Origin: a virus | Taxonomy: Duplodnaviria; Caudoviricetes | Virus record (IMG/VR): IMGVR_UViG_3300034132_000017 | Location: 934-64,933 of that record | Reading direction: 5' to 3' (one strand) | Length of the DNA: 64,000 nucleotides | Part shown: piece by piece, positions 1-60,261 of the stretch | How the letters are laid out: the number at the start of each line of letters is the position of its first letter | Numbering within the stretch: position 1 is the first letter of the stretch | Notes under the pieces: generated by a model | Told to the model about the DNA's origin: nothing | Database searches by the model: none | The model's input: only the letters and a program-made list of their open reading frames with translations | Translations under genes and position numbers: made by a program

Positions 1-117
1 AAACGTTTTCAGCAGTTGCAGGGCGAGAAAGAGCGCTGTGAATGGGATTTGGAAGCGCTCCGGAATGCTCTGAAATATCACGCTGTCGAGAATTCGATAG
101 AGCGGAAACGGGGCTGA
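1..117 (+). CDS. 3' end of an upstream CDS (partial)
   Basis: Open frame from base 1 (KRFQQLQGEKERCEWDLEAL...) to TGA at 115-117. Confidence 0.5.
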   Translation, partial: KRFQQLQGEKERCEWDLEALRNALKYHAVENSIERKRG

Positions 118-154
118 GGGAACTACAGGGCGTTCAACCCTTCTCCCTCAATCC

Positions 155-1582
155 ATGCCTAAGAAATCTGCCGCAGCTCGCACAGCTCACACGCTGAAAT
201 ACACTCCTGAAGTTGAATTGTGGTCAATCGATAGGGTTATCCCCTATGCACTGAACCATAAGAAGCACCCGCCAGAGCAAATCGCCAAACTCAAAAGCGG
301 AATCATTGAGTTTGGTTGGGACGTGCCGATCGTCGTGGATGAGAGCGGTGTGATCATCAAGGGCCATGGACGACGGCTCGCAGCCCTCGACCTGGGATTA
401 ACAGAAGTCCCGGTAATTGTGCGCTCTGATTTGAGCGAAGCGCAGAAGAAAGCGTGTCGCATTCATGACAATAAAAGCGCTGAATCTGACTATGATATCG
501 ATGCTCTGAAGGTTGAATTTGAAGCGTTAGCAGAGCTGAACTATGACCTTGATCTGACGGGTTTCGACAAGCTAGAAATCGGTGATTTTTTTCTGGATGG
601 TGAAGAGAATGACCATGCAGAAAAAAATGAGGAAGAGCAGTCTGGACCTGGTGGACCTGGTGAGGAAGATGAAGAAGAGGAAGCGCCACCAGAAAACCTC
701 GATACAATCGTCAGTCGGGTTAAACCTGGTGAAGTCTGGGAGGTTGCAGGGCATCGGGTGATGTGTGGTGACTGCCGAGATGCAGCACAAGTTAAGTTTC
801 TCCTGGGCAATGAGCCGATCAATCTGTCTGTCACCTCTCCCCCGTATGCCTCGCAGCGCAAATATGATGAGGAGTCAGGATTCAAGCCAATCAAGCCCAA
901 TGACTACTTGAGCTGGTATGAGCCAGTTCAAAGCATCATTAAGCAGCACTTAGCCCAAGACGGCTCCTACTTCCTGAACATCAAAGAGAGTGTTGAGGAC
1001 GGTTCCCGTCACCTGTACGTTAAAAAGCTGACGATCGCCCATGCTGAAGAGTGGAGCTGGCGATTTGTCGATGAGTTTGTCTGGAAGCGTCCAGGTGTCC
1101 CCGGCAAGTGGAAGGACAGATTTAAGAATGCCTGGGAACCTGTGTTTCATTTTGCTGTGTCAAGCGCGATTAAGTTTAACCCGCTGGCAGTTGCCCATCA
1201 CTCCACGGACCTGGTGGGAGATGGTGAAGCGCATGAGGCCAAGTCCAACGGAAAGTATTGGAACATGCCCAAGACTGAGAAGAAAGAGGGTTTGGCGCTT
1301 CCCGGCAACGTGCTAGAGATTGCAGCTTCTACAGGTGATGCAATGGGTCACTCTGCACCCTACCCAGTGAAGCTACCAGCATTTTTTATTCAGGCGTTCA
1401 GTGACGAGGGCGATCGCGTCTATGATCCGTTCCTGGGCAGTGGCACCACCTCTGTTGCAGCTCACAAGCACAAAAGAATAGGGCTGGGTATGGAACTCAG
1501 CCCTAAGCATTGCGAAATAATCCTACGTCGACTGGAAAAAGTAACTGAAACCACAGCTCAACTTGTAGATACCTACAAATAA
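155..1582 (+). CDS. ParB/Srx-domain fused N4/N6 DNA methyltransferase (beta class)
   Basis: N-terminal ParB-like motif (IVVDESGVIIKGHGRRLAA), acidic linker, catalytic SPPY before the SAM-binding DPFLGSGTT. Confidence 0.9.
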   Translation: MPKKSAAARTAHTLKYTPEVELWSIDRVIPYALNHKKHPPEQIAKLKSGIIEFGWDVPIVVDESGVIIKGHGRRLAALDLGLTEVPVIVRSDLSEAQKKACRIHDNKSAESDYDIDALKVEFEALAELNYDLDLTGFDKLEIGDFFLDGEENDHAEKNEEEQSGPGGPGEEDEEEEAPPENLDTIVSRVKPGEVWEVAGHRVMCGDCRDAAQVKFLLGNEPINLSVTSPPYASQRKYDEESGFKPIKPNDYLSWYEPVQSIIKQHLAQDGSYFLNIKESVEDGSRHLYVKKLTIAHAEEWSWRFVDEFVWKRPGVPGKWKDRFKNAWEPVFHFAVSSAIKFNPLAVAHHSTDLVGDGEAHEAKSNGKYWNMPKTEKKEGLALPGNVLEIAASTGDAMGHSAPYPVKLPAFFIQAFSDEGDRVYDPFLGSGTTSVAAHKHKRIGLGMELSPKHCEIILRRLEKVTETTAQLVDTYK

Positions 1583-1613
1583 GCTTGCCGAAAAAGTTCA
1601 AAACTTGTGCAAG

Positions 1614-1910
1614 TTATGAAACTTTTTGTTGTCGTTTGAGGAAGTCAGCAAGGATGCGCCGGAACAGTTCGGTTTTGTTCTCCCCTGTCTCACCCATGAT
1701 TCCTTCTAGCTGTTCCCCAATCTCATTGGGGACCCTGCCGCCGAATTGATAATCCTTGCGCTTCTCCTCTGGGAGCTGGCGGCTTGGGCGAGGCTTCCCA
1801 GGTCCACCGTTGAGGATAGCGCCCGTTTCAGGATCATAGTGTCGATAGCGGTCTTTTTTTCTGCGGCGGATGGCTGGTCTAGCCGCAGCCGCAGATTTTT
1901 TTTCTGTCAT
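1614..1910 (-). CDS. ribbon-helix-helix (CopG-like) DNA-binding protein
   Basis: Basic N-terminus; C-terminal beta-alpha-alpha pattern YQFGGRVPNEIGEQLEGIMGETGENKTELFRRILADFL. Confidence 0.6.
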   Translation of the reverse strand: MTEKKSAAAARPAIRRRKKDRYRHYDPETGAILNGGPGKPRPSRQLPEEKRKDYQFGGRVPNEIGEQLEGIMGETGENKTELFRRILADFLKRQQKVS

Positions 1911-1990
1911 GCGTCACCCCCTAGAGCTTAATCACAGGGTAGAGTCGTTTAGCTGTAAACGTCAATTGATTGAAAAGTCAAGACGCTATT

Positions 1991-2458
1991 CTACCTGTCT
2001 TTTAGCACTTCATAAGGAACTGTAGAAGTCAATCTTGAGTAGAGCGTTTCTAGTTTGGTTTCTACCTCTCCAAACGCTTCCCGCAAGTCGGCGTAGCACT
2101 CCCAAGACTCCTCATCTTTGAGGGAATCCATTGTTGTGAGCTGGTGTAACGGCTCTCTCAAGACATCTAGAAGAGTTTCAAACGTTTCAAGTTTCACCAG
2201 GTCATCTCGCGTAACTTCTACTGGCTCTCGCTTCTCTCCATAGTGTTCGCCAACAGAGCGAACTATAGACTTGAAAGCTACTTGCCAGAAGCAAAGCATC
2301 TTTACGAGTTCAGATGGGGTGTTTGTGGGTTTTCCAGACATCAGCAAATGGGTAATGAAATTGTTAGCGACATCGTTATCGAGGTATATTCCAGTCGCAT
2401 CGAACCACCAGCGCTCTACCTCATGGCGGGAAATTCTTTTTGTATGTTGCTCAGTCAT
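1991..2458 (-). CDS. hypothetical protein
   Basis: ORF; start moved to ATG 2458 (MTEQH), which follows GGAGG. Confidence 0.65.
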   Translation of the reverse strand: MTEQHTKRISRHEVERWWFDATGIYLDNDVANNFITHLLMSGKPTNTPSELVKMLCFWQVAFKSIVRSVGEHYGEKREPVEVTRDDLVKLETFETLLDVLREPLHQLTTMDSLKDEESWECYADLREAFGEVETKLETLYSRLTSTVPYEVLKDR

Positions 2459-2511
2459 TGTTAGAATCCTCCTTATTTTTATTGCAACGGGAACACACGG
2501 CATTCAGAAAC

Positions 2512-2916
2512 TTAGCTGTGAGCGGTTCGCAGTTCAATCACTGCAATCTCTTTACGCTCTATCAGTTTGTAGGTAGAGAACTCGCGTAGAAGTCGATTCA
2601 GCTCTATCTGTAAGCGCTTATAAGAGCGTTTACCTTGCTCTAAAGCATCTAACCGCTCTTTATGTGGTGACTGCGATAGAAGGATTTTTTTCTGTACCTC
2701 CCTCTGCTCGGCATTCTTGAAACTTGAATCAAAGTACACTTCGGCTTCTACCTCAGTCATAGACTGGGATACAGCTTGCTCTAACTGGTAAAGTGTTGCC
2801 GAATAGTCCAGAAGCTTAAGTTCTAATAACTCGATTTCTCTAGATGTGAACTGCAATGATTCGATTGTGGTGGGAGGCAGTGTAGCTCTCGTTTTGGTGC
2901 CGTTGGTAGCTCTCAT
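2512..2916 (-). CDS. coiled-coil hypothetical protein (cyanobacterial type)
   Basis: 134-aa helical ORF preceded by the shared leader core TCGATAATGTTT (2934-2945). Confidence 0.65.
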   Translation of the reverse strand: MRATNGTKTRATLPPTTIESLQFTSREIELLELKLLDYSATLYQLEQAVSQSMTEVEAEVYFDSSFKNAEQREVQKKILLSQSPHKERLDALEQGKRSYKRLQIELNRLLREFSTYKLIERKEIAVIELRTAHS

Positions 2917-2998
2917 TGTGTTAGCCTTGAATTTCGATAATGTTTAAACGTTGGGTAGGGGTGAACTCCCCTACCCGATTTTTTTCAGGACGGTTGGA

Positions 2999-4765
2999 TT
3001 ACTCTTCCAGCATGATTTTTCTGGCTTTGCCTTTGGGCGTGGCTTGCTTGCTGGGCGTGGTGACAGTTTCCACAGTAGACATATTCCGGGCGGCAGTCTT
3101 AGCCCATTCCCGGAGTGCCATCGTCTTATCTGCATTGCTGACACTTAAGGGCGTAACGTCAGCAATAGCGCTGATTAGATGAGCATCATTGATGGTGTCT
3201 AAGTCTTCATCAAAAGCGGCTAGCGCTGCCTCATCCACCACTGCCCGAATCTCAGCACCCACAAACCCATCCGTGAGGGAAGATAGGTAAGCTAATCTTT
3301 CCTCTGGCAAGGTCATCTGATGACGTTGCAGATGGACGGCAAAGATCGCCATCCGTTCGGCGGCGGTGGGCAGATCAGCGAACCAAATTTCATCAAAGCG
3401 CCCTTTCCGGGTGAATTCGGGGGGTAGTTTAGATATGTCGTTACTGGTACAAACCACAAACGCGGGGCATGTTTTGTCGTTGAGCCAGGTCAGGAAGTCA
3501 CCAAATAAGCGCTGAGTTACGCCACCATCACTAGACTCACCGCCAGCGCCAGCTAAACCTTTCTCTACCTCATCAATGAAGAGAACCACTGGACCTAAGC
3601 TTTCAACCAGTCGGGTAAACTCTCTGAATCTGGCTTCAGTTTCGCCAACGTGCTTGTTAAAAAATGAGCCTATATCCATCGCCAGTGTAGGAACCTTGAG
3701 TGTGGCTGCCAGGGCTTTAGCTGCCAGTGATTTACCTGTGCCGGGGTGACCAACCATCAAGCAACCTTTAGGAGCTGGCAGGTCTAACCTGCTGGCGCGA
3801 GAATTTTGGGTCAGCGTGGCTGAGAATAATTTTTTTCTGCGGTTCAGCCATGCTTTGAACTCTTGATATCCTCCCGGCATGACATCAGGCGCGGGTGAGA
3901 ACTTAACACCAAGTTTTTCAAGTTTGACCATTTTGGACTGAATGATCAAATCTGCGGTCTTAGCATCAACGCGGCGGCGTTCCCGCACGTCCAGCCGTAG
4001 GCAGTTTAGAAACTCAGTCTCGGTTAAACCTCTGCCAGCGGTGGCGATTTCTTCCCGGTGGCTTGCTTCTAAGTCAATCGTTAACGTTGCCCCTGCTAAC
4101 CTGAATTCCTGTGAAGTCTCACCAATGAAGGTGTTAAGGCATTCTGTGAGCCGAATAGGTGAGGGCAAACTATATCTGGCTTCATAAACCACGCCAGAGA
4201 ATCGATTATCAAATTTGACATCCTGACCCAGAAATAAGATCCGCTTGTAGCCCTGCTTTAGGCTATCTCCCATTTCTAGAATGAACTCCCGAATTACGGG
4301 TACTTCCTTTTGGCCACACACATACTCAGCCATGCCCCGCAAGATGAAGATTCCGGGCTTCTCGTAGCCTTGAATGAATTGGAGAATTTCAACGATTGCG
4401 GCTTTCTGGCATTTTACCGGGACTGGCTGATAGTCAATTCCTGAAACCGTTCTAACCTCTGCCTTAAGCTGTTCCAAGCCTGGCTCATAAGCGCTGCCAG
4501 CGTACCAATTGCCATCGTTATCCCGGCAGCTATCGCCATCGTAAAGAGTATCGCTTGCGGTTCTCAAAATAACTTCGGTGGCAGGGATTACCTGCCGCAA
4601 TAGTTGAGCCTCAGAAAAAACAAACACGGGCAAGTTTAATCTCATTCCAACTTCCCGGTAGACCTCCTCTGTTACGTTTGCCAGCTCTGCATTGCTGCAA
4701 TGCAACGCCACTACGGGCATGGCAGAACCGAAATAGGAGCGAACTTGTTTCATGGCTTCAGACAT
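2999..4765 (-). CDS. Ycf46-like AAA+ ATPase
   Basis: Walker A GHPGTGKS, Walker B LFIDE, SRH motif SNDISKLPPEFTRKGRFDE, degenerate N-terminal AAA module. Confidence 0.88.
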   Translation of the reverse strand: MSEAMKQVRSYFGSAMPVVALHCSNAELANVTEEVYREVGMRLNLPVFVFSEAQLLRQVIPATEVILRTASDTLYDGDSCRDNDGNWYAGSAYEPGLEQLKAEVRTVSGIDYQPVPVKCQKAAIVEILQFIQGYEKPGIFILRGMAEYVCGQKEVPVIREFILEMGDSLKQGYKRILFLGQDVKFDNRFSGVVYEARYSLPSPIRLTECLNTFIGETSQEFRLAGATLTIDLEASHREEIATAGRGLTETEFLNCLRLDVRERRRVDAKTADLIIQSKMVKLEKLGVKFSPAPDVMPGGYQEFKAWLNRRKKLFSATLTQNSRASRLDLPAPKGCLMVGHPGTGKSLAAKALAATLKVPTLAMDIGSFFNKHVGETEARFREFTRLVESLGPVVLFIDEVEKGLAGAGGESSDGGVTQRLFGDFLTWLNDKTCPAFVVCTSNDISKLPPEFTRKGRFDEIWFADLPTAAERMAIFAVHLQRHQMTLPEERLAYLSSLTDGFVGAEIRAVVDEAALAAFDEDLDTINDAHLISAIADVTPLSVSNADKTMALREWAKTAARNMSTVETVTTPSKQATPKGKARKIMLEE

Positions 4766-4771
4766 GGGGTG

Positions 4772-4840: not shown

Positions 4841-4890
4841 AAAAGGTAAAAAGTGGGGCAGAGTGTTTATCCTCTGCCCTTTCAGCGTCT

Positions 4891-5088: not shown

Positions 5089-5128
5089 GATTGTTTTGCC
5101 TCGTTTGTAGCGTGTATTTTTTCCGGGA

Positions 5129-7107: not shown

Positions 7108-7113
7108 GGCTTA

Positions 7114-10150: not shown

Positions 10151-10289
10151 GGCTCATCCTGACTCAGCGATCGCTAGTGTGCCCCTATGCCGGAGTAACC
10201 CGACATTTGAAACCAGCGATTGATAGGGCTTTGAGTCGGGTGTGGGAACTAAAAACAGACATTACCCGACAATACCCGACATTCGGAAT

Positions 10290-12835: not shown

Positions 12836-13153
12836 ATGAATTCGGCAAGCTTAAGGTTTATCAAGCAAAACTGGCAGCTCATATTCCACAAGAGCGCCAA
12901 AGATTTTCAGCCAGTGATTGATAAGACATCTCTCGCATCTCTGCAAGCGATCGTAACGGTCTTAAAGCGTGACAATTGGCGAACGTTGAATGAGCTGGCA
13001 GAGGTAACAGGACTGAACAAAACGACTGTTGCAGAGATCACAGCAGCTCTTGAGAGAGAGCTATTTGAACGCTTCCTCTGCCCTGACCCGGATAGGGGCA
13101 GAGGGGATGAGGTTGCTGTAGGGCTGCTTAAAACTTCGAGGTTTACGCGCTAG
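12836..13153 (+). CDS. winged-HTH protein
   Basis: WRTLNELAEVTGLNKTTVAEIT. Confidence 0.6.
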   Translation: MNSASLRFIKQNWQLIFHKSAKDFQPVIDKTSLASLQAIVTVLKRDNWRTLNELAEVTGLNKTTVAEITAALERELFERFLCPDPDRGRGDEVAVGLLKTSRFTR

Positions 13154-13776: not shown

Positions 13777-14535
13777 ATGACCGTCACACCTGAAAGTCTT
13801 AAAGCCCGTAAAAACTCGACTGAACTTCTCTGGAAACACTTTAAACACAGAATTAGCAAGCAGGAAAAAGCACTAGAAAGCAGAAATGCAGCGGTTTTAG
13901 CCCACCAGAAGTTAGTACAGTCTGAAGCTCATAAGATGGCATCCCGGTGCAGAGTCAGCTATGAAGACTTAGAACAGCTTGGCATGATTGGTTTGGTGAG
14001 AGCAGTTGAGCGCTTCGATCCAACAATGGGCGTATCTTTCAGCTCGTTTGCAGTGCCCTACATTCGGGGGCAGATGTTACACCACCTTAGAGATCACGGC
14101 AGCTCTATAAAAGTGCCTCGCCGGATGCGGGAAGCAAACGCGGCGGCTGGAAAGATTGAACGTCAGTGGGTTGCAGTCCGGGGCAAAGCTCCAACTGAGA
14201 CGGAGACAGCAGCAGAGATGGGTATCACTGTTCAGAAATTGCGGAACGTGCGAGCAGCGATCGCCAATCAGATGGCACTGCCTTTACAAGAGGAATACTG
14301 CGATATTCCAGCACCAGAAACCTACACCCTTAACGAAGAAAGCAACGGTAGGCTAGAGCGCGCCTGGTCGCAGCTCCGCACGAACCTACAGCAGTTGCAC
14401 CCATCAGAGCAAGAATTGATTCGCTTGGTGTACTTCAATCGACTCTCTATCAATGCAGTTGCAAAGCTCCACAAGCTCGATGCAGAAGCACTGCGAGGCA
14501 AATTGAATCGGATCTTACTTAGGATTGCTAATTAG
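13777..14535 (+). CDS. group 3 (SigF/SigB/FliA-like) RNA polymerase sigma factor
   Basis: Region 2 DLEQLGMIGLVRAVERFDP..FSSFAVPYIRGQMLHHLRD, IKVPRR; region 4 divergent. Confidence 0.92.
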   Translation: MTVTPESLKARKNSTELLWKHFKHRISKQEKALESRNAAVLAHQKLVQSEAHKMASRCRVSYEDLEQLGMIGLVRAVERFDPTMGVSFSSFAVPYIRGQMLHHLRDHGSSIKVPRRMREANAAAGKIERQWVAVRGKAPTETETAAEMGITVQKLRNVRAAIANQMALPLQEEYCDIPAPETYTLNEESNGRLERAWSQLRTNLQQLHPSEQELIRLVYFNRLSINAVAKLHKLDAEALRGKLNRILLRIAN

Positions 14536-14575
14536 AGAGTGTGGGAACGTTTTAGCAGTAATAGTTTGACTTGTC

Positions 14576-15579: not shown

Positions 15580-15707
15580 CGGAACACCAACGACGCATGA
15601 GCGCTCTAACGTTCCCACGCTCTACAATGGCTGTATCGCTCCTGATTTCGCGTTGTTTAGGGCAGCGCTTGACTCTCACAACTGGTAGGGGCGGTTTTTT
15701 GGTGCAA

Positions 15708-15798: not shown

Positions 15799-16401
15799 AT
15801 GGCAAAGATCATCATGATTACTTCCCACAAGGGAGGTGTCGGAAAAACCACAACAGCAATCAATCTCGGTTGCTTGTTTGCTAAAGAGGGTAAGCAAGTG
15901 CTGGTGATTGACACAGATCCAAACAAATCAGCGATCGTCTGGGCGCGGAACGGAACACTACCGATCAAGGTAGTGCCGGAAGCTCAATCAGCTCGGCTCC
16001 TGCAAAAGGAGCAATTCGACATCATAATTTTCGATACCCCCGGCAGACCGAACAAGGAAGAGATAGCGGAGCTGGCAGAGGGTAGCGACCTGGTGATCCT
16101 TCCGACTACTCCCCGGACATTAGCGATCGCCACACTGAAAGAGCTTGCAGGGAGTCTATCTGAAACTCAATGCACCTTCAAAGTGCTGATCTGCGACTCA
16201 CCACCAGCACCGCAGACAGACGGCGCTGATGCCTACGAGGGCATCAACGGAATGGGCATCCCTGTCTTCAAAAGGCTGATAAGAAGCTTTAAAGCATACG
16301 AACACGCTGCGAATGCAGGCATACCAGTCTATGAAGTGAAGAGGGTTGGGAAAGTCGCTTGGCGCGATTGGGAAGTGTTGAGGGAGGAAATTGAGCTATG
16401 A
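15799..16401 (+). CDS. parA: type Ib ParA partition ATPase
   Basis: Deviant Walker A KGGVGKTT, IDTDPN, DTPG; short, no N-terminal HTH. Confidence 0.93.
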   Translation: MAKIIMITSHKGGVGKTTTAINLGCLFAKEGKQVLVIDTDPNKSAIVWARNGTLPIKVVPEAQSARLLQKEQFDIIIFDTPGRPNKEEIAELAEGSDLVILPTTPRTLAIATLKELAGSLSETQCTFKVLICDSPPAPQTDGADAYEGINGMGIPVFKRLIRSFKAYEHAANAGIPVYEVKRVGKVAWRDWEVLREEIEL

Positions 16402-21262: not shown

Positions 21263-21532
21263 TTGACCTGGGCAGCTCTCAGCTTCCCATCTATGCTCTG
21301 CAAGGTGGCAGACCGAGCATAGGAATTCCCAGTTATCGCGATCGTTGTTTTCCCGGTTGCGATCTTTGTGATGCAATTGCAGCGCAAACTTGCCTGACTC
21401 AGAGCGTGAGCCGCTCCCTTCACCATGTCGGGAACACTGCTTATTGCAACGCTCACAACAATAATCAAGCGCTTGTCTGATCTCCTCTGCAAGCGCTTCT
21501 AATTCATCAGTCGGTAGCTTCAGTTTGGGCAT
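21242..21532 (-). CDS. HNH endonuclease
   Basis: CERC...LQLHHKDRNRENNDRDNWEFLCSVCHLAEH. Confidence 0.85.
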   Translation of the reverse strand: MPKLKLPTDELEALAEEIRQALDYCCERCNKQCSRHGEGSGSRSESGKFALQLHHKDRNRENNDRDNWEFLCSVCHLAEHRWEAESCPGQLLLFFE

Positions 21533-21833
21533 CGGGAGAAACCAGATACATTACCGATTTGCCGTGAAAAGTAACCTTAAACGCCCCGATTTCTTCAGTC
21601 TGTAATCGGCTCGCATACTGAGGAAATTCTGACTTCAATGTTTGAATATTGACTGGCTCAATCTTATCTTTATTTGAAATTGATGCCAAGTCTTCAAGGG
21701 GTATTAATACCCCTTCCAATCGAGAATTTAGATAAATTTCGACCCGAATACCTCTGTCGTGAACATGCCTTCTATAGTGAGCTACTGAATGTCTTAGCCC
21801 ATGAAGGCTAACTTTTATAGTTCTATCTTTCAT
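21507..21833 (-). CDS. tandem Phd/YefM-like protein
   Basis: Two halves with the Phd pattern (VSLHGLRHSVAHY..VEIY..GVLIPLED; VNIQTLKSEFPQY..FKVTFHGKSVMYLVSP). Confidence 0.55.
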   Translation of the reverse strand: MKDRTIKVSLHGLRHSVAHYRRHVHDRGIRVEIYLNSRLEGVLIPLEDLASISNKDKIEPVNIQTLKSEFPQYASRLQTEEIGAFKVTFHGKSVMYLVSPDAQTEATD

Positions 21834-24258: not shown

Positions 24259-24336
24259 ACCACCACAATCTCAAAACTTGAGTGAGTTTTGAGTTTTTTG
24301 GAAACTATAGGTTCCTGATGATGAAAAAGTTTTCAG

Positions 24337-24960: not shown

Positions 24961-25047
24961 GGCGGGTTCCAGGAAAGTTTGGGTCTAGTGTTCCCGCTGG
25001 CAACGTAGCCCAAACCTGCTAAAAATCTCAGGTGGGAACTCCAGAGC

Positions 25048-26628: not shown

Positions 26629-26801
26629 TGGAGCCGAACCCAGACGATGCGATTCTGAAGCCGATTGGAATGCCGATCAGCGCTGAAGATCTTCGCAAGC
26701 ACACCCAAATTACCCGCGGGGATTTAGAGAGGGCACTACAGGACAGCAGCAGGCGGCTGAAACCGTTTGTTAATGCAAAGCTCTATGTCCGTAAGCTATA
26801 A
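26628..26801 (+). CDS. 57-aa protein (not in the ORF track)
   Basis: TAATG coupling to the portal gene, MEPNPDDAILKPIG... Confidence 0.55.
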   Translation: MEPNPDDAILKPIGMPISAEDLRKHTQITRGDLERALQDSSRRLKPFVNAKLYVRKL

Positions 26802-27432
26802 CCCCTCAGCGGGGCGTTTTATTGACTCTGCTGGTAAGTTTGTCGCTCAATCCGTAGTTGATAATTTGCTGGAGCAGGAGCAGTCACAGCTTGCGGTCAG
26901 GCTGAAAGCACTCACCCGCTTACTGTCTGACCAGAAAATATCGCTGTCTGACTGGCAACTACGGTTCGCAGATACTTTGAAAGCATCGCACCTCCGTATG
27001 CTCTCACTTGGGGCAGGTGGGCAAGAGCGCTTAACCTCCCGTCATTACGGAGCCGCGGGCTATCAGCTTGGTAAGCAATATGACTACTTGAGCAATTTTG
27101 CCCAACAGATCCACCAGGGCGAGATCACGATTAAACGGGCAATCCAGAGAGCGGGGCAATATGCCAGCTCAATCCGCCCGACGTTCGCCAGGGCAGTACA
27201 GCTCTCGCGTGAGGCGGAGGGGTTCAATGAAGCAAAGCGGAGCCTTGACCCACAGGCTAATCACTGTCCAAGCTGCATTGGGCATAGCACTAACGGGCGA
27301 TGGGTACCGATCGCCCAAATTACGCCAGTAGGAACTAATTGTGAGTGCGGGCAGCGCTGCCGCTGCTCCATCCAGTATCGCCGCAGAGTGCCTGTGAGCC
27401 TGAACCGGGGAACTCTAAGCACGACAGCTTAG
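26785..27432 (+). CDS. head morphogenesis protein (gpF/SPP1 gp7-like)
   Basis: Follows portal; C-terminal HCPSC...CECGQRCRCSIQY. Confidence 0.75.
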   Translation: MSVSYNPSAGRFIDSAGKFVAQSVVDNLLEQEQSQLAVRLKALTRLLSDQKISLSDWQLRFADTLKASHLRMLSLGAGGQERLTSRHYGAAGYQLGKQYDYLSNFAQQIHQGEITIKRAIQRAGQYASSIRPTFARAVQLSREAEGFNEAKRSLDPQANHCPSCIGHSTNGRWVPIAQITPVGTNCECGQRCRCSIQYRRRVPVSLNRGTLSTTA

Positions 27433-28990: not shown

Positions 28991-29026
28991 GATGAGGGAA
29001 CTACACAGCAGTTTTGAGTAACTGCT

Positions 29027-29446: not shown

Positions 29447-29931
29447 GCGATCGCTACCGGGGACCCAAGAGCCAGCTAGGAAAAATCAGGATTAAGCCGG
29501 GGGCGGTCGCAGAGCTGCGAAAGAAGATTCAGGATAGCTTTGCAGTCGTGGTTGAAGAGCTTGATTACGAATATCACGTAACGATTCAAGACCCCGACGC
29601 TTTTGAATATCTGGGGTTTTTCGATCAAGATATCGTAGACACTGGACGGTTTGACGACTCCCAAATTATTGATGTGCAGACGAAAGGGAATGTCACAACT
29701 GCCCGTTGGATCTGGAATCCAACTTCACCCGATGATGGGTACCACTATGCTTCAGCGCTCTACTATGGCTTCCATCCCTATGGCGGGACTGGTTATTGCC
29801 CTGGGCGACCATGGGTAGATTTTTCAATCAGAAAGCTAGACCCCGTTTCGTTGCTGGTCAAAGAGCTGAAGAGCCGAGGGCTAAAGGCGCGAGTGATTCA
29901 GAACAACGTCAGCACTTTGCAATTAGGTTAG
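29443..29931 (+). CDS. putative tail-completion/neck protein (HK97 gp10-like)
   Basis: IVDTGRF...YASALYYG...GRPWV motif. Confidence 0.65.
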   Translation: MSDRYRGPKSQLGKIRIKPGAVAELRKKIQDSFAVVVEELDYEYHVTIQDPDAFEYLGFFDQDIVDTGRFDDSQIIDVQTKGNVTTARWIWNPTSPDDGYHYASALYYGFHPYGGTGYCPGRPWVDFSIRKLDPVSLLVKELKSRGLKARVIQNNVSTLQLG

Positions 29932-29966
29932 TGGGAACTTCAGGGCATCCTATCAAAGGACGCTCT

Positions 29967-30690: not shown

Positions 30691-30819
30691 TTTGGGCATT
30701 CTAAATTAGCTAGATAGTCACCTAATTTTCAATCGATCGCAACGCCCGGAGCGCCTTTCCGGGCGTTTTCTTTTGGTGGGAACTCCAGAGCGACCAACAA
30801 CCTCTAGAGGTCGTTCTGA

Positions 30820-31470
30820 ATGACTAACCAAAACTTTGTAATTGGTAACCAGACCAAGTTCTTTTTCTCGATTCTGCCTGCTTCAATGCTGGACAATCCG
30901 GCAGCTCCTACAGATGTCACGATCACTGTGGACGTTCCAGGCTCAGGCGGAAGCGTTGCTGTCAATGCAACTGCCATCCCAACTGTTGCACTTTCTAACC
31001 CAGTTCCAGAGGGTACACCAATCCCCTTTGTTGCAGGCGGCGCAACTTATTGGGCTTATACAACTCTGTCTGCTGCTGCTGGCGCAACCAGTCTGACTGT
31101 AGAGCCTTTACTGGTCGCAATTCCTGACGGTGCTCAAGGCGTTTATACCGCAATGCTGGAACTCATCGGGGGTACTACTTCTGATGAACAGATTCAGGCA
31201 CAGGATCAAGAAACGATGGTGTACGGTATGCCCCTTGGCTACTCTACCGGGATTGTTACCAAGGCATCTTGGAACCTGTCTTACACGTTTAACGTGTTGC
31301 CTTCTGACCCTGGCTACTTTCGCCTCGCTTATGCCGCTTCTCACGCGGTTGGTGGCGTTCGCGGTTGGGTGCGTAAAGAAGATCCAGCACCTTCAGGCTA
31401 TTCTCACGGCGAACGCATTGAAGGGCTTTGTGATGTGACTGACTTCAGCAAAACAAATCCTGCTGACGGT
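30820..31470 (+). CDS. major tail tube protein, exon 1 (217 codons)
   Basis: Tube-like beta pattern with an inserted Ig-like segment; ends at GGT before the intron. Confidence 0.8.
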
Positions 31471-31707
31471 AAACAATTGATTGCCGCCTAATTCAGTAAT
31501 GAGTTAGTGAACATGGGGTGAATTGCTGGAAACCTAAAGCGCAAGCCAAGGCAATCAGCAGCCAAGCCGGGGGAAGGGTTAAAAGTATCCCGGAAGGTTC
31601 AACGACTAGCGAGTGAGGAACCCATCCAATAAGCTCCACCAGCGCCCCACAACCCAAGCGGTTGAAGATATAGTCTGAGCCGTCTAGAAATAGCGGATTC
31701 CCGATCG
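31471..31707 (+). ncRNA. group I self-splicing intron (IA-like, no homing endonuclease)
   Basis: P AATTGCTGGAAAC, Q AATCAGCAGCC, R GTTCAACGACTAG, S AAGATATAGTCT; P1 with U.G pair; P2, P3, P4, P7, P8, P9 all pair; terminal G. Confidence 0.92.
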
Positions 31708-31770: not shown

Positions 31771-31893
31771 TCGCCAAAAAGAAAGGACACGCGGAGCCTC
31801 AACCCTCTGCCGCATGTCCATATTCTGTTGTTCCCTCGCATTCATTTCACTTGTGGGAACTCCATCACAACAATGTGATTAGAGAGTTCCAAA

Positions 31894-42349: not shown

Positions 42350-42388
42350 GAATGTAGGAACAACAGGGCGACTCCACTAGATCGCCCT

Positions 42389-45306: not shown

Positions 45307-45310
45307 GTTC

Positions 45311-45482
45311 GGATTTTTAGCTCTTAACTTCTAAACTCCTAAACTCCTAAACGTTTAAGCTTTTAGGCTCCTAAACTTTCAGCCTCTTAGGTGTTTAGAC
45401 TTCTCAACTTCCAACTCTCAACTCTCAACCCTCTAGGCTTCCAGACTTTTAGAAGTTTAAGAGTTTAAGAGTTTAGAAGTTT
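45311..45482. repeat. octamer array (centromere candidate)
   Basis: About 20 units with 7-8 bp period (ACTCCTAA, ACGTTTAA, GCTCCTAA, GAGTTTAA), shared with the parA promoter. Confidence 0.8.
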
Positions 45483-45584
45483 ATTCATTAGCGCTATTCA
45501 TTAAGGGTTAGTGAACACTCTCAAAACTTACGCAAGTTTTGGGCATTCTGAGGGCATGTTCTCTCAGCTTGGAACCCAACTGTT

Positions 45585-48398: not shown

Positions 48399-48480
48399 TC
48401 GAAATAATCGAAATAGCTGAAATAGCCGCAACTTCATGAGGTGGGAACACCAGGGCACAATCTTTACGGCGGGATGCCCT

Positions 48481-49299: not shown

Positions 49300-49589
49300 A
49301 AAGCATCATTGTCCAAACCCCTGATAACGGCTACGTCGCCAGAACAGCAGTCTTGATTGACGGGATAGAGATCAAAGACGTTACCAACGTTCAGATAGAA
49401 ATCAGAGCTGGCGAAGTGGCTCCTACACTCGTAATCACACGATTCAAGCGGAACGCGATCGGTGAGTATTACCTGATCGGTGAAAACATCGCAACAGAGC
49501 GGGTTCTGTACCGTGGACGACTCACAATCGAGTTTGAAGAAGTTGATTACAACTCAAAACTTACGCAAGTTTTGGGGTGCGGGAACTAA
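49296..49589 (+). CDS. hypothetical protein
   Basis: 4-bp overlap with the scaffold gene. Confidence 0.55.
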   Translation: MKSIIVQTPDNGYVARTAVLIDGIEIKDVTNVQIEIRAGEVAPTLVITRFKRNAIGEYYLIGENIATERVLYRGRLTIEFEEVDYNSKLTQVLGCGN

Positions 49590-49621
49590 ATAGCGTCATT
49601 GTTTCTCCTTTGGTGGACTCA

Positions 49622-49649
49622 AGAGCGGGTTAATTCCCGCTCTTTTTTT
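49622..49649 (+). terminator. intrinsic terminator just before the capsid promoter
   Basis: AGAGCGGG-ttaatt-CCCGCTCT followed by a T run. Confidence 0.75.
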
Positions 49650-49781
49650 GTGGGAACTACAGCGCGAGTGAAAAACACTCGCCCAGATTTCAATACGGCG
49701 GGATGCCGGAATCGAATAGCCAAGCGGGATGCGAGGCACTGGGACATCAAACCAAACCTTGCATTTCCAACATTTCTAAAG

Positions 49782-52885: not shown

Positions 52886-53001
52886 AAGACCTCTGGGGGT
52901 TGAAAGAATAAAATTACAATACCCAAAAGCCTCAAAACTTACTCAAGTTTTGAGGTTATGGATCACTGTGGGAACTCCATTGCAGAATTTGATTTCCTGC
53001 A

Positions 53002-53685
53002 ATGGCATTTTTTCCAGACCTGATCGGCACCACACTGTCCTACTTCAAAATCGGCATCAATGGGGTGCGGCTGAAGCTATCAGGCTCAAATTTATTTATT
53101 CGCAATGCTGGCGATACGGCTGATGCAGAGCTAACCGCTTCTAAGCTCAATGCCAGCGGTGACGACATCGTGATCAACTCTGATGCAGCAGGAAGCGGCT
53201 CAGATTATCTCTACACGCTTCGCAGACCCAGCACACAGACAGCCGCAACTGTGCTGATTCTGCCTCCCACGATGGGCACAGCAGGGCAAGTGTTAGGCAC
53301 AGATGGCACAAACACCAGTTGGGTTAGTGCTGCCTCTACAGCGTCCTGTGTGAGCTGCGACACTACGACGCTCAATTACAACTCAGCTTCTAGCGTGGCA
53401 ATGTTCACGCTCCCGGCAAATGCCGTTGTCCACAAAGTTCAAGTCATTATCGATACCCAATTCAGTGGGGGCACTCCTACCGCTTCTGTGGGCTACAGCG
53501 GCTCGACAAGCGCTTTTATGGGGGCAAACCAATTAAGCCTCACAGACTCAGCAGGGGTCATCTACGAGGCGAATCCTTCGGTAGCAGCGTCCGGCACGAC
53601 TACAGCGCTGATCATCACCTATGCCGCTGGCGGTGCATCGGCTGGCTCTGCTCGATTCCTCGTCTACTACTCAGTTCCGGCGTAG
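53002..53685 (+). CDS. virion fiber-associated protein
   Basis: Small-residue-rich; late motif at 52968. Confidence 0.6.
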   Translation: MAFFPDLIGTTLSYFKIGINGVRLKLSGSNLFIRNAGDTADAELTASKLNASGDDIVINSDAAGSGSDYLYTLRRPSTQTAATVLILPPTMGTAGQVLGTDGTNTSWVSAASTASCVSCDTTTLNYNSASSVAMFTLPANAVVHKVQVIIDTQFSGGTPTASVGYSGSTSAFMGANQLSLTDSAGVIYEANPSVAASGTTTALIITYAAGGASAGSARFLVYYSVPA

Positions 53686-55154: not shown

Positions 55155-55244
55155 TCTGGTAACGAGCGAATTCTAAGCGAATTCAAATTCAAGAACAAAA
55201 GCCCAAAACTTACGCAAGTTTTGGGCTTTCCCTGCATTTTTCTC

Positions 55245-55688: not shown

Positions 55689-55698
55689 ATTCAACTCC

Positions 55699-56136: not shown

Positions 56137-57275
56137 GAAACCTCCCTAGTGATTCTGTTTCGCTTTATCCTGAATCCCCAGTGTGGGGACTGCCCTACCA
56201 ACTGCTGCACCAATCCATCGCGATAGCTGAGCCATTGCGAAAGAACCTGCTGCATGTCTGTGTATGCGCCGTTCTCGAATAGAATTTCGAGTGACTTGCG
56301 GCGATTCTCTAAAACTTGTGATGCTGTGAGCTGCGGTTCTGCGGGTTTGGAGTTCTGATGAGCTTCGCCGCTTCCGTTCTGCATTGGGGGTGCAGTCGGC
56401 TCAGATGGCCGTCCTTTTTTGCACCAGGACTCATAACGTTCGGCACCCTGGTTCTGAATGCAGCGCTTCGTGAAATCGTCAATATTACCGATCTGATTGT
56501 CCTGCTTCCTCCGCAGTCTCTCCTGAGCTATCAGAACGACCTGAGCGCGAGTGTAGATATAAAACTCAATCGGACTCCCTGCAAATCCTGGTCCTGAATA
56601 CTCAGACCAGTTAAAACACCCCGGTTCAAGTTCAAAACTTACATAAGTTTCGGGCGCGGAAGAATCGTTCTCTGTAGTTTGTGGAAAACTTTCAGCAGTA
56701 GATTCAGGAATTACATCACTCGGAGATGTGGAGCCGTTAAAGGTTACACACTGATCCCTATAATTTTCTCTTTCTAAATTATTTTGTGTTTCTCTCTCTC
56801 TCTCTTTTAAAGAAGATCTATATAGATCTGGAGAGCTGCTAGAAGCATTGCAGAGCGCGCGATTTGAGTCTTCAAATTCTAGGATCTGAGAATTTGACTC
56901 TAGGATCTGAGAATTTATTCTAGGATCCTGATTCTCATTCTTAGACTCTGGAGTGCTTTCTAAGACTCTAGACAATTCTCTGTTAGAATGATTCCAGATA
57001 AGCTTGAGTTCTCCATCTTTGATAGTGAACTCTCCCCATTCTCTAAGTGTGCCGATCGCAGCATAAAAGCTGCTCTGAGGTATCCCCCAGCTCAATCGAA
57101 AGCTCTTAATATCAATTCTGAACTCTCCTCTTAGGTTTGAAGGAAAGTCAAGCTGGAGGGCAAAGTAGACAAAAAACACGTTAGGCAAGCCGTGTTTTTT
57201 GAGCTTGAGTAATTCTTCTCTGGTGACCGGGAAAAACGGAGAGAGAATTTTCTTTCTAACGTTTGGTTGATTCAT
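56133..57275 (-). CDS. replication initiator (HTH) with internal iterons
   Basis: N-terminal HTH (SWGIPQSSFYAAIGTL), internal direct repeats and AT-rich tract. Confidence 0.7.
   Translation of the reverse strand: MNQPNVRKKILSPFFPVTREELLKLKKHGLPNVFFVYFALQLDFPSNLRGEFRIDIKSFRLSWGIPQSSFYAAIGTLREWGEFTIKDGELKLIWNHSNRELSRVLESTPESKNENQDPRINSQILESNSQILEFEDSNRALCNASSSSPDLYRSSLKERERETQNNLERENYRDQCVTFNGSTSPSDVIPESTAESFPQTTENDSSAPETYVSFELEPGCFNWSEYSGPGFAGSPIEFYIYTRAQVVLIAQERLRRKQDNQIGNIDDFTKRCIQNQGAERYESWCKKGRPSEPTAPPMQNGSGEAHQNSKPAEPQLTASQVLENRRKSLEILFENGAYTDMQQVLSQWLSYRDGLVQQLVGQSPHWGFRIKRNRITREVS
56760..56936. other. candidate replication origin
   Basis: TCTAGGATCTGAGAATTT at 56878 and 56899, partial copy at 56919; AGATCTATATAGATCT palindrome and AT/CT-rich tract adjacent. 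Confidence 0.55.
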
Positions 57276-57676
57276 CCCTCAATCTCCTCAAACGTTGCAA
57301 TCTCAAGCGAAACAAACGACTGTACTATTTGGTCTGTATTTGCCATAATTAAGAACTTCGATCTTCGGTACTTGTGCGGGGGATCAGGTGTAGGATGCAG
57401 ACTTTGATAGCAAGTTAAAGTCTGAAAAAATGCAAATAGAAAAAGCCCAGATTCGCCATCACCAGCGAATCTTGGGCTTTACTAAGTTAGACTTACAACA
57501 GTATGTAAGTCGTGAAAAAAATGCTAAAGTGGTGTATAACATGCTGAATTACTCGGCATAAAAGAGCGGAAGTGTTTGGCAACACTTCTGAATTTGAAGC
57601 CCTTCCTATTGGCGGCAAACCGGGGGAGTGGGCGTATAAATCAAAAAACGGTGGAAATTGGCGTTTCCATCGTTTT

Positions 57677-58042
57677 TTATGCGGCTATAAGCACTTGTTC
57701 AGAAATACAATTTTGATCTTTATTTGCCTTTGGAGCAAGGCAGATAATCATTAGCTCTGCTTCGGCTGGCAACACCCTCTGCTTCTTTCTTCTGAGGTCA
57801 ATCCCCAAAAGAAGGAGGTATTTTGGCATCCCTAACTGAACCGCGAAAGAGTCTAATGTACTGTCGAGAATTGGCGTTCCCGAAAAGTACTTTGACCATC
57901 TTGCCCGATCTGTTCCTGTAGCCGTGGCTATGGCTTCTAGAGACATTTCAAGAAACTTTTTAAGTTGCTCAATTTGCTGACTAGAACCAGCGTTTTGATC
58001 GTTTTGCATAACTGTACAAGTGCAGTATGAGAAGAGTAGCAC
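57677..58042 (-). CDS. XRE-type HTH protein (Cro-like)
   Basis: MSLEAIATATGTDRARWSKYFSG; true start probably ATG 58009. Confidence 0.6.
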   Translation of the reverse strand: MLLFSYCTCTVMQNDQNAGSSQQIEQLKKFLEMSLEAIATATGTDRARWSKYFSGTPILDSTLDSFAVQLGMPKYLLLLGIDLRRKKQRVLPAEAELMIICLAPKANKDQNCISEQVLIAA

Positions 58043-58139
58043 AGAGTTGTCTTAAGGAACAACATATTTTACACAAGACTTAGTAAAGTGAACTTTGCTT
58101 GTGCAATTCACCTATTAGAGAACGTTATGCGAAAAGGAT

Positions 58140-58409
58140 ATGGATCATAGGGACGCTTTCAATTTCGTGGTTGCCACTTTTAAGTTGAGCATGGCTGAAC
58201 TTTCTAGAAAATCAGGCGTCCCGCAAGAATCAATTACTAGATTTAGAAAAAAACAGAAAGATTTTGTAGCTGAAACATTGTTCAAGTTGATAGGAGCTAT
58301 GGATAGGAAGCATCAAGCCGTTTTCTATGGGTTAATGCAGAATGGGCAGAATGGCAAGAATAATGAGGTTGAAAAGGATGAGGTTGAAAAAGGAGGGGCT
58401 GATGAATAG
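58140..58409 (+). CDS. XRE-type HTH protein (repressor-like)
   Basis: LSMAELSRKSGVPQESITRFR; divergent from the previous gene. Confidence 0.7.
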   Translation: MDHRDAFNFVVATFKLSMAELSRKSGVPQESITRFRKKQKDFVAETLFKLIGAMDRKHQAVFYGLMQNGQNGKNNEVEKDEVEKGGADE

Positions 58410-58449
58410 TTCCATCAGCCCCGTGCAGTCTATGAGAGGAAAGCCAGAT

Positions 58450-59601
58450 TTAATCAGAAGATTCCAGGATCGAGCTATCAGCAGGAAGCATACTTTTTGC
58501 CGTCTCAATTAGCTTTGAGCGCTTGTGCAATCTCAGTCCTTTGCGTACCTTGATTACCGACAAAATCTTATCCATATAACGCTCTGCCTCTGCAAATTGC
58601 TCGTTATCTTCGGGAACTGGGGGCAGGGCTGCTAATTTTTGCAAAACCTCAACCCTCTTCTCCTCATCCCACGGTCGTTGTGCTTGGAGGAAGTTACCGA
58701 TCGTCCTCTCGTCTTTGTTTGATTTGAGGAAGCTTGAGAGGCGCGTAGAGCTGGTAGTTTTTGTTTCAGGAGGCTCCACAGTCTTTGCAGCTCTAGGCTT
58801 TGTTGCGGTTGCTGTGTTGCTACGGCTTCTCCCCCTTCTCGCGGGCGGTGTCTTTTCAACGTTGTCAACAGCGCTCATCGCTGGCTCTGCCCCGTTGGTT
58901 TGGGACTGCTCAATCATTGGTGTTTTTTGTAGCAAATTCACCAATGACCGCATAAAAATTTCCCAGTGAACTTGGGTGGTCCAGTAAGTTCCTTCCTCGG
59001 TCATAAACGCAGACATCCCATCGGCGTTCATTGCCTCAACAACAACCTCGACTGGAACGCCGATCGCTTCCGTCCGACTTGTAAGACTGATCAATAGAGG
59101 GGCATTAACTGTCTTTGCTGTTTGTTCTCCTTTATTTAAAGTGGATCTTCCTTGGCTTTTTTGAGCGGAACGTGAAGCTCCCTTTTCCATCGTGGTTTGG
59201 GTCATAGGTTTAGTTTTCAAAGACGTGCTTTTTCCCAGTTTATTAAACCTTCCCGAATCTGGATCGATGTTTTCCTCAAAATCAGAGTTATTTCGATTGC
59301 ACAGCACTAAAGCTGGAAACGTAGAGCAGTTATAGATTATGTCCGAATTGGTCGTCAATACAAGGCTGGAAGCACCTGTAATTAGCCAGGCTTGCCAACG
59401 CAAATCAACCACTTCTTTGAGGAGATGATCGGCTGATTCGCTCTGGCAGACCAGGTACATACCGTTGTCAAGACTGCTGAGATGGATGTGGCAGTTATCT
59501 AGCAGGTTCCCAAAGCACGCTCTATACCGCTCCATTCGGGCGGCTTCAAAGCAGAGAAGGTCATCTTCAGTAAATTCAGTAAGTTCAAACTCTTCAGGCA
59601 T
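58450..59601 (-). CDS. hypothetical protein
   Basis: 383 aa; GTAGGAACTCTAGGGC motif upstream (59623-59638). Confidence 0.65.
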   Translation of the reverse strand: MPEEFELTEFTEDDLLCFEAARMERYRACFGNLLDNCHIHLSSLDNGMYLVCQSESADHLLKEVVDLRWQAWLITGASSLVLTTNSDIIYNCSTFPALVLCNRNNSDFEENIDPDSGRFNKLGKSTSLKTKPMTQTTMEKGASRSAQKSQGRSTLNKGEQTAKTVNAPLLISLTSRTEAIGVPVEVVVEAMNADGMSAFMTEEGTYWTTQVHWEIFMRSLVNLLQKTPMIEQSQTNGAEPAMSAVDNVEKTPPARRGRSRSNTATATKPRAAKTVEPPETKTTSSTRLSSFLKSNKDERTIGNFLQAQRPWDEEKRVEVLQKLAALPPVPEDNEQFAEAERYMDKILSVIKVRKGLRLHKRSKLIETAKSMLPADSSILESSD

Positions 59602-59634
59602 GGCTAGGACGTTGTTGAGGTCGCCCTAGAGTTC

Positions 59635-60261
59635 CTACCTGACTCCTACCCGCTTTTTCTCTGCCCTGGCATCAGCGATCGCGCGGTTAATCAACGCCAT
59701 CATCTTTTCATTTCCAGTTGAGCTGTCTGGGTGGTAGTACCTCGCCAAATCCCTATATGCCTGCTCAATCTCTGAGAGTGAAGCGTTTGGGTCAACTTTC
59801 AGCACAACCCACCAGTTCCCCGCTATCTGTCCAGCGGTTACTGTCTGCCCTGGCGGGGTCAGATACTTCATTTCCTCGTACAGCTCTTCCTGTGTCTTCA
59901 CTCCCCACCTGAGCCGCCCCCGTTGAGCGTCAATATCTTTAGCAATTGCCCAAAGATTATCCTTCACCCTATCCCATAGATCGCAGCCGGTGGCTCTAGG
60001 AATTCCCTTGGGGTCTTTGAAGTAAACACCCACACCCGGATCATCCGGCTCTGCAAAGCGACTGTACGGCTTTCCCACTTTGGTGATTGGGATATTCGTC
60101 GTCACGATTATTTCTCGCGCTCCAAACAGCTCAAGCTGCCTCACCAGCTCCTCATAAGCTTGAAGGATTGTTCGCCTTCCCTGCGGGTCAAAACTGGAGC
60201 GGAAGCGTTTTTTTGAGCGCTCGATCGTGTGGGGATACTCCAGCGGGAATCTAGGGGGCAT
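59635..60261 (-). CDS. J-domain (DnaJ-like) protein
   Basis: WWVVLKVDPNASLSEIEQAYRDLARYYHPD. Confidence 0.85.
   Translation of the reverse strand: MPPRFPLEYPHTIERSKKRFRSSFDPQGRRTILQAYEELVRQLELFGAREIIVTTNIPITKVGKPYSRFAEPDDPGVGVYFKDPKGIPRATGCDLWDRVKDNLWAIAKDIDAQRGRLRWGVKTQEELYEEMKYLTPPGQTVTAGQIAGNWWVVLKVDPNASLSEIEQAYRDLARYYHPDSSTGNEKMMALINRAIADARAEKKRVGVR

Follow-up and report, generated by a model that had tools for sequence, protein, structure and literature searches.

Phage-encoded sigma factors and late promoters without a -35 element are already known. In phage T4, gp55 sends the host core polymerase to many short, scattered late promoters that lack a -35 (TATAAATA), and sigma cascades operate in Bacillus phages, e.g., SPO1 with its gp28 and gp33/34. 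Here we analyze a dispersed 16-bp motif in IMG/VR provirus record IMGVR_UViG_3300034132_000017, of which 64,000 of the 64,933 bases (hereafter, the window) were examined; CheckV completeness is 73% and the GC content of the window is 48%. The motif is probably the late promoter of a temperate, siphovirus-like cyanobacterial prophage, most likely read by the host core RNA polymerase together with a phage-encoded SigF-like sigma factor. The parallel with T4 would lie in a phage sigma directing the host core to scattered promoters without a -35; unlike the minimal gp55, however, the sigma of the window is a full-length group-3 factor (sigma2, sigma3, sigma4), and its phage, unlike T4, is a temperate siphovirus-like prophage of filamentous cyanobacteria.

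The closest described promoters are those of cyanobacterial group-3 sigmas. Synechocystis SigF requires a -12 region, GGTAA within GGGTAAG, and a -32 TAGGC (PMC2532724). The SigJ promoters of Nostoc punctiforme carry a J-Box, GGGaAtacT, in which GGG is the extended -10 and aAtacT the -10 hexamer, with a weak -35 (PMC6495340). The first-pass annotation had assumed that the SigB/SigF family reads GGG-led -10 elements, and cyanobacterial SigF and SigJ indeed do so, with a weak or absent -35 (PMC2532724, PMC6495340). A further precedent concerns translation: for the T4 genes e, soc, 49 and I-TevI, the 5' strand of an inhibitory helix is specified by the DNA of the late promoter, and translation is confined to late transcripts (McPheeters 1986; reviewed in PMC3014915).

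The phage motif shares with the J-Box and the SigF -12 element a GGG triplet immediately followed by an A-rich -10 hexamer, a distance of 30-40 nt to start codons, a weak or absent -35 and a cyanobacterial group-3 sigma as its putative reader. The hexamer itself is different, AACTnC rather than the aAtacT of the J-Box or the TAAG of SigF; where the J-Box has A at position 2 and T at position 6, the phage hexamer keeps A2, and its last position is C in 22 of 33 sites. SigF also needs its -32 TAGGC, which is found at none of the phage sites. Unlike in the two host elements, conservation runs on through a CAGRGC discriminator up to the predicted start, and the motif is phage-specific and paired with a phage-encoded sigma. 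No description of such a system was found in the literature searched; new here are a full-length SigF-like sigma in prophages of filamentous cyanobacteria, the 16-bp phage-specific putative promoter and an apparent regulon-wide gating of the gene e type.

Counted from the first G of GGG, the motif has the consensus tGTGGGAACTnCAGRGC plus a following purine, with its information confined to a single block from -2 to +14. In the window, GTGGGAACTNNAGRGC at up to 2 mismatches has 14 matches against 0.74 expected, a count reached in 0 of 100 shuffles, and plain GGGAAC occurs 55 times against 26.4 expected. A matrix was built from 17 sites picked by reading the context of every GGGAAC; at >=14 bits it returns 17 hits in the window compared with 0.8 in shuffles. 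All 17 strong sites are co-oriented with a downstream start codon, which lies 31-46 nt from the first G in 14 of them (binomial P ~2e-20), with the portal gene (+14) and the capsid gene (+130) outside this range. Among the hand-picked sites, G1 is replaced by A in two (the GTAGGAAC variant), while G2 and G3 are invariant. In the set of 33 non-redundant sites, which was chosen with the matrix and is therefore partly circular in this respect, G2 and G3 are invariant (33/33), G1 is kept in 30, C occupies position 13 in 29 and a purine position 14 in 30; A9 is nearly invariant.

Every site that the first-pass annotation had listed was found in place. Two of the downstream starts required correction, to GTG 10290 for the putative small terminase and to ATG 15579 for the gene following the site at 15603-15618, and the site at 27406 proved weak (8.3 bits). 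We looked for a -35 or an AT-rich upstream element and found neither, as no upstream column exceeds 0.6 bit, so the earlier impression that a conserved -35 is lacking holds. The flanks of different sites are unrelated to each other; the motif is therefore not a dispersed repeat element.

The placement of several sites argues for a promoter acting as DNA. Two motifs directly follow intrinsic terminators: one at 30741-30767 (plus strand, an 11-bp stem followed by a T run) is succeeded by the motif at 30776, and one at 49621-49644 (plus strand, a 9-bp stem whose T run leads straight into GTGGGAAC) by the motif at 49650. In the 87-bp gap between the divergent genes for the C39-like peptidase (ATG 24960; Pfam Peptidase_C39_2, 3.1e-11) and the portal protein (ATG 25048), there is exactly one motif per direction, back to back, and no sigma-70-type match. 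The peptidase motif lies at 24982-24997 on the minus strand (15.8 bits), and the portal motif at 25032-25047 on the plus strand (25.3 bits) abuts the portal ATG. The gene at 53002, which follows a minus-strand gene, again has a motif of its own. The late region has no excess of sigma-70-like matches (10 against 15.6 expected), and none of them stands before a late gene.

Several features of the window set the context for this reading. The HIP1 octamer GCGATCGC is present in 62 copies against 1.6 expected; the host is therefore a cyanobacterium. A serine recombinase (ORF, open reading frame, 62547-63395; Pfam Resolvase, 5.9e-37) and the provirus call of IMG/VR suggest that the phage is temperate. 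Pfam searches of the window ORFs identified a DNA methylase, a weak large terminase, a portal protein (DUF4055/SPP1-like), a P22-type coat protein, the C39-like peptidase and a sigma factor. The Pfam scan, which covered 40 ORFs, revealed neither an RNA polymerase gene nor a second sigma factor, the sole other candidate regulator being a weak winged helix-turn-helix (HTH) protein at 12836-13153. PHROGs gave almost no names for the motif-driven or virion-region genes and supported the small terminase weakly; the labels tail tube, chaperone, Dit, holin and fibre are positional guesses of the first-pass annotation.

Related loci were reached through the sigma clade and through portal alignments; single-sequence queries with the sigma or with the portal protein retrieved no related loci, whereas alignment queries did. 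The relatives comprise G001 (89.5 kb, complete, with terminal repeats), G002 and G005 contig 32 (from an Oscillatoriales metagenome-assembled genome, MAG), the further relatives G004, G003 (113.6 kb), G006, G010 and L116, and the more distant G007 to G009. The portal proteins of G001, G002/G005 and G004 are 57-60% identical to that of the window, and those of further relatives 48-55%; no portal match was found in G003. In the relatives that share the motif, proteins are 42-60% identical to those of the window. A sigma of the same SigF-like family is encoded in 9 of the 9 relatives checked.

The motif keeps its position across these diverged genomes. It abuts the portal ATG at +14 in the window, G002/G005, G004, G006 and L116 and at +15 in G001, and the upstream sequence is different in every case; in G004 and G006, a terminator-like hairpin and its T run likewise precede the portal motif. 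Orthologs of the chaperone, Dit, scaffold, small terminase, 29027 and 383-aa genes retain the motif at the same place while their flanks diverge, and the GTAGGAAC variant stands before the 383-aa gene in the window, G001, G005 and G003. Matrix hits at >=14 bits number 7 against 0.4 in G002, 10 against 0.8 in G005 contig 32 and 5 against 1.1 in G001. The 3' half of the motif varies by lineage (G006, G003), and in the distant G009, GGGAAY recurs directly after terminators.

Host DNA gives a different picture. The strict pattern GGGAACNNNAGRGC has 10 matches in a 7-Mb host MAG, 6 of which fall on a 73-kb phage contig, all on one strand, compared with 2 matches for the reversed pattern used as a control. 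In cyanobacterial DNA surrounding host SigF genes (1.26 Mb), only two further copies were found. Given this scarcity, the full motif is a phage element rather than part of a host regulon. Its conservation before orthologous late genes in sigma-carrying relatives, together with its specificity relative to the host MAG, supports the earlier proposal of a dispersed late regulon of the phage.

The candidate reader is encoded at 13777-14535 on the plus strand. This 252-aa protein matches Pfam Sigma70_r2 (4.4e-16) and Sigma70_r3 (0.0031), and its best NCBIfam family is cyanobacterial SigF PRK07408, at 162 bits against a curated cut-off of 261, with SigB/F/G next. It has the makeup of a sigma-70 group 3 factor: region 2, with its core-binding and -10-recognition helices, together with regions 3 and 4, no region 1.1, no long insertion and a length of ~250 aa. 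A profile of its clade finds Geobacillus sigmaF 1l0o_C (8.5e-30, residues 24-246) and a chain of the S. aureus sigmaB open complex as best solved relatives, and Foldseek matches the structural model to sigma chains over the full length. The AlphaFold (AF2) model, with a mean predicted local distance difference test (pLDDT) of 77.6, shows sigma2, sigma3 (115-163), a disordered 3.2 linker and a four-helix sigma4 (residues 187-251, pLDDT 80-91). Pfam does not detect region 4 in the window sigma and detects it in clade members. The first-pass annotation had called the protein SigF-like, which Pfam, NCBIfam and the 1l0o_C match uphold as group-3 SigB/F type, and its region 4 divergent, which is right for the sequence; the predicted fold, as a refinement, is a normal four-helix sigma4, and region 4 is thus probably divergent in sequence and intact in fold.

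At least 13 metagenomic or provirus homologs (43-56% identity) form a clade of their own with this sigma, compared with 30-42% identity for host SigF-like proteins. No close relative was found among 50,697 cultured phage records, all hits being below 32% identity. The alignment of phage sigma and host SigF is conserved through FSSFAVPYIRG..LRD, and the region 2.4 helix reads RG[EQS][IM]LH[HF]LRD in the phage clade versus RGEIQHYLRD in host SigF. The Q-to-L position, which may correspond to sigma70 T440, contacting -12, provides a lead. The motif is absent upstream of the sigma gene in the window and in the relatives (best scores <=1.7 bits); the gene is therefore expressed from a different promoter, which fits a sigma made earlier than its proposed targets.

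A property of the motif that the first-pass annotation had not noticed is that its 3' half doubles as one arm of an RNA hairpin. At most sites, motif positions 5-18 are complementary to a segment 19-45 nt downstream. Where the 3' half diverges, the partner changes with it, as in CCATTGCAG/CTGCAATGG at 52968, CACAGCAGTT/AACTGCTGTG at 28994 and CTCTAAGC/GCTTAGAG at 27406. The portal pairing also covaries between genomes, with CCAGAG/CTCTGG in the window, AAGGGG/CCCCTT in G001 and CTGGGG/CCCCAG in G004. Over the 33 non-redundant sites, pairing with the own partner has a mean of -8.55 kcal/mol, a value attained in none of 5000 permutations, versus -6.65 for swapped partners. The hairpin is predicted at ~12 of 19 window sites and in relatives too; of the 12 strong ones in the window, 9 have a 3' arm that overlaps the start codon or lies directly next to it. 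None of the motif sites matches an Rfam family. A DNA cruciform role of the inverted repeats was set aside, as the loops are 4-20 nt and there is no precedent for sigma-dependent polymerases.

The predicted effect on translation depends on where the transcript begins. The opening cost, i.e., the predicted energy to open the initiation region from -13 to +5 around the start codon, falls from 10.0 kcal/mol for transcripts with a 5' end at -40 to 7.3 at +8 and 4.2 at +14. Compared with 182 control starts, which are the first ATG of long ORFs, motif genes are predicted to be more closed in long transcripts (9.8 versus 7.5 kcal/mol, P = 0.004) and more open in transcripts starting at +14 (3.8 versus 5.9 kcal/mol, P = 0.0004). 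The long-minus-short difference is 6.0 versus 1.65 kcal/mol (P = 3e-7). As in T4 genes e, soc, 49 and I-TevI, the hairpin would have its 5' strand within the putative late promoter and would mask the start region with its 3' strand. In T4 such gating concerns few genes; here it is predicted at most late promoters, with the conserved promoter sequence itself as the 5' arm.

These observations can be joined into a model in which the late promoters would be of a 'GGG plus -10' type without a -35, as read by cyanobacterial group-3 sigmas, and the host core RNA polymerase carrying the phage sigma would read them. When the geometry of SigF and J-Box promoters, with a start ~7 nt past the hexamer in the J-Box type, is applied to the phage sites, the predicted first nucleotide of the transcript is position 14 (or 15) from the first G, a purine that follows the conserved GC. 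Indirect support comes from the conservation itself, which ends at C13/R14, as a pyrimidine/purine start would. Most other late genes would then have leaders of ~17-30 nt, and a start at position 14 would make the portal mRNA leaderless. This prediction gains support from the ATG at +14/+15 in six lineages, where no Shine-Dalgarno sequence is possible. Transcripts reading through from upstream would fold the hairpin over the initiation region, and those begun at the promoter would be without the 5' arm and hence stay open. We tentatively extend this to the whole regulon, and consider it possible rather than probable that nearly every virion gene is translated only if transcription started at its own sigma-specific promoter, with the portal mRNA leaderless, as a fail-safe of the prophage.

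Some observations weigh against this model. Both the sigma dependence and the start site rest on analogy with described systems, and the -10 part, AACTnC, is without the final T of the J-Box hexamer. The phage sigma, at 162 bits, falls outside PRK07408 at its curated cut-off of 261, and the distant relatives G008 and G009 carry the sigma without the full motif. Most labels in the late region are positional, Pfam backing the methylase, the C39 peptidase, the portal, the capsid and, weakly, the large terminase. Since the control starts are first ATGs of long ORFs, some of them are wrong. Finally, the hairpin arms begin at positions 5-10, which also fits a start near A9 with a protective 5'-terminal stem-loop, contrary to the assumed group-3 sigma geometry.

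That last point leads to an alternative in which the motif acts as RNA: a start or cleavage near position 7-9, at the conserved CA, would yield an mRNA with a protective 5' stem-loop, and GUGGGAAC would then be the recognition site of a nuclease or RNA-binding protein instead of a -10 element. The near-invariance of A9 and the beginning of the 5' arms at 5-10 are in its favor, as is the covarying pairing, which means that selection acts on these bases at the RNA level in some transcripts at least; the capsid stem-loop, moreover, lies well away from its start codon. Yet 9 of the 12 strong hairpins cover or abut the start codon with their 3' arm, which would mean poor translation of the most abundant virion proteins, and for the sites after terminators or in the divergent gap there is no upstream transcript that could be processed. 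Pfam and PHROGs scans of the window ORFs revealed no gene for a nuclease or an RNA-binding protein, no Rfam family matches any site, and a start at +9 would place GGGAAC at -9 to -4, unlike any sigma-70-family promoter. We regard this alternative as unlikely. We think it quite unlikely, too, that a host group-3 sigma of the SigF or SigJ type reads the motif while the phage sigma redirects host genes or competes with host sigmas. The GGGAA core is common to the SigF GGGTAAG and the SigJ J-Box, and the phage sigma is 36-42% identical to host SigF-like proteins, with a very similar region 2; however, host DNA has next to no copies of the full motif, every motif-bearing relative carries the sigma as a conserved core gene, and the phage clade consistently differs from host SigF in the region 2.4 helix. 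A host motility sigma driving late genes would, in addition, couple lysis to host development.

Two other explanations take the motif out of sigma recognition altogether. A non-sigma late activator or repressor, e.g., the winged-HTH protein at 12836-13153, could bind it, with weak host-type sequences nearby as the real promoters; a weak HTH protein does lie near the sigma gene, and the 16 conserved base pairs come close to the usual length of an operator. This is made very improbable by the asymmetry of the motif, its strict co-orientation at 17-30 nt from start codons, the lack of sigma-70-like hexamers at matching positions and several gaps too small for another promoter. Short repeats are abundant in cyanobacterial genomes, as the 62 HIP1 copies in the window illustrate, so the motif might be due to chance or to a selfish repeat (HIP1-like or a miniature mobile element) without a role in expression; against a strand and position bias of P ~2e-20, unrelated flanks and positions conserved before orthologs in diverged genomes, this is scarcely credible. 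The late promoter read by host core and phage sigma remains our preferred interpretation.

The individual sites, on the plus strand unless stated otherwise, extend over most of the window. The motif at 116-131 (23.4 bits) precedes the DNA methylase gene (ATG 155; Pfam N6_N4_Mtase, 1.9e-34). The one before the putative small terminase gene, at 10242-10257 (17.4 bits), has a poor 3' half and no hairpin, and the G001 ortholog has TGTGGGAATACCAGCGGC upstream. Just past the sigma stop, the site at 14541-14556 (17.1 bits) precedes a 145-aa gene (ATG 14576); at the same place after its sigma gene, G001 has a weaker match with a GGGAAG core (77558, 13.2 bits). On the minus strand, the site at 15603-15618 (20.1 bits) stands before a 53-aa gene, and the 3' arm of its hairpin covers the ATG. 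The gene after the portal, encoding 219 aa (ATG 26773), is preceded by a weak GGGCAC variant at 26729-26744 (13.0 bits). At the weak site 27406-27421, before a 126-aa gene (ATG 27450), the hairpin that follows has -12.5 kcal/mol, and orthologs of the gene retain the GGGAAC core.

Further into the late region, the site at 28994-29009 (20.8 bits), before a 139-aa gene (GTG 29027), has a 10-bp hairpin of -16.2 kcal/mol whose 3' arm contains the start codon, and the site at 29931-29946 (22.7 bits) overlaps the stop of the preceding gene and stands before a 34-aa ORF (ATG 29967). The motif at 30776-30791 (25.4 bits) precedes the 223-aa gene called tail tube in the first-pass annotation (ATG 30820); its hairpin, -18.9 kcal/mol, has a 3' arm that ends at -1 of the ATG. 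This so-called tail-tube gene is interrupted by a group I intron (Rfam RF00028, 91.5 bits, E = 3.7e-22) at 31461-31696 on the plus strand. The 180-aa "chaperone" gene (ATG 31894) has its motif at 31853-31868 (20.2 bits), and its G001 and G005 orthologs score 13.2 and 15.9 bits. After the tape-measure stop, a GTAGGAAC variant at 42354-42369 (21.3 bits) precedes the 158-aa "Dit" gene (ATG 42389); an AGGGCGA/TCGCCCT hairpin abuts the ATG, and orthologs reach 21.8 and 12.7 bits. The putative scaffold gene (ATG 48481) follows a motif at 48441-48456 (23.0 bits), with 20.8-22.9 bits in the G001, G005 and G003 orthologs.

The capsid region contains two motifs. The first, at 49579-49594 (20.5 bits), lies ~30 nt before the terminator at 49621-49644, and may give a short RNA or act as a decoy. 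A predicted RNA of ~50 nt, or a possible decoy/attenuator, spans 49579-49648 on the plus strand, and GCGGGAACTAA in this region can pair with TTAATTCCCGC in the descending arm of the terminator. The second, at 49650-49665 (24.4 bits), precedes the major capsid gene (ATG 49782) with a predicted 116-nt leader and a stem-loop at its predicted 5' end. The capsid protein matches Pfam P22_CoatProtein (1.1e-23), and the first match begins at residue 62 of the long ORF, which is ATG 49782. Downstream of a diverging minus-strand gene, the site at 52968-52983 (22.6 bits) precedes a 227-aa gene (ATG 53002), whose start codon is covered by the hairpin of this site (-15.0 kcal/mol). On the minus strand, the 383-aa gene (ATG 59601) is preceded by a GTAGGAAC variant at 59623-59638 (21.5 bits). 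A doubtful site at 62445-62460 (16.4 bits), with a poor 3' half and no hairpin, lies 100 nt before the serine recombinase gene.

Other repeated elements were observed around the late genes. In the leaders of the scaffold gene (48466-48478) and the capsid gene (~49694-49706), the late motif is followed by the segment (A/G)CGGCGGGATGCC, with copies in G001 (31054), G005 contig 32 (35386), G003 (23812 and 24694), G006 (7983 and 8856) and L120 (7438). It is almost unchanged across six diverged genomes, far better kept than the rest of the leader, and is a candidate protein-binding RNA element. Near-identical hairpins, CAAAACTTAnnCAAGTTTTG, sit at the ends of late gene blocks at 45522-45541, 49555-49574, 52933-52952 and 55204-55223 on the plus strand (4 exact copies against 0 expected), with a variant at 24270-24293. 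Terminator scoring picks up this variant on the plus strand and the copy at 52930-52955 on the minus strand. Between two late genes, a 200-nt non-coding run at 45307-45520 consists of short direct repeats (CTCCTAAAC, AGTTTAAGAG and similar). Elsewhere in the window, Pfam recognizes a ParA-like ATPase (ORF 15799-16401), a Phd/YefM antitoxin (ORF 21507-21833) and a DnaJ-domain protein (ORF 59635-60261).

Several candidate sequences in the relatives were examined and discarded. The GGG k-mers GGGACGTA, GGGTCGAG and GGGTATTG, which emerged from a naive enrichment in the 20-kb sigma loci of relatives, are coding repeats or due to chance. In G001 (L093-L097), GGTTCTGTGGGT occurs in 14 copies against 0.8 expected, and GGTTCGGGGGGTG in 24 copies against 0.1 expected in G003 (L106-L111) and in 9 in G004 (L100-L101). 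As promoters both were rejected, being mostly intragenic and on both strands; they are possibly Chi-like or host-specific repeats. G008 (L126-L128) contains ~17 copies of a perfect palindrome, TGAAAAATTTTTCA, and G009 (L129-L132) ~9 copies of CCCTRTGGAAAATTTTCCAYAGGG; these palindromes, operator-like in appearance, were rejected as the late motif.

Little is known about the regulation of cyanobacterial prophages, and sigma genes carried by cyanophages are usually treated as metabolic modulators (PMC12284385). Our results would give one phage sigma a concrete, testable job, with a 16-bp promoter, ~17 target sites per genome and natural variants in relatives with which specificity could be mapped. 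Host DNA contains hardly any copies of the full motif; the sigma-promoter pair may therefore be orthogonal to the host and could serve as an expression switch in cyanobacterial engineering. If the hairpin gating is true, it would represent a general way for a prophage to silence its lysis and virion genes despite read-through transcription.

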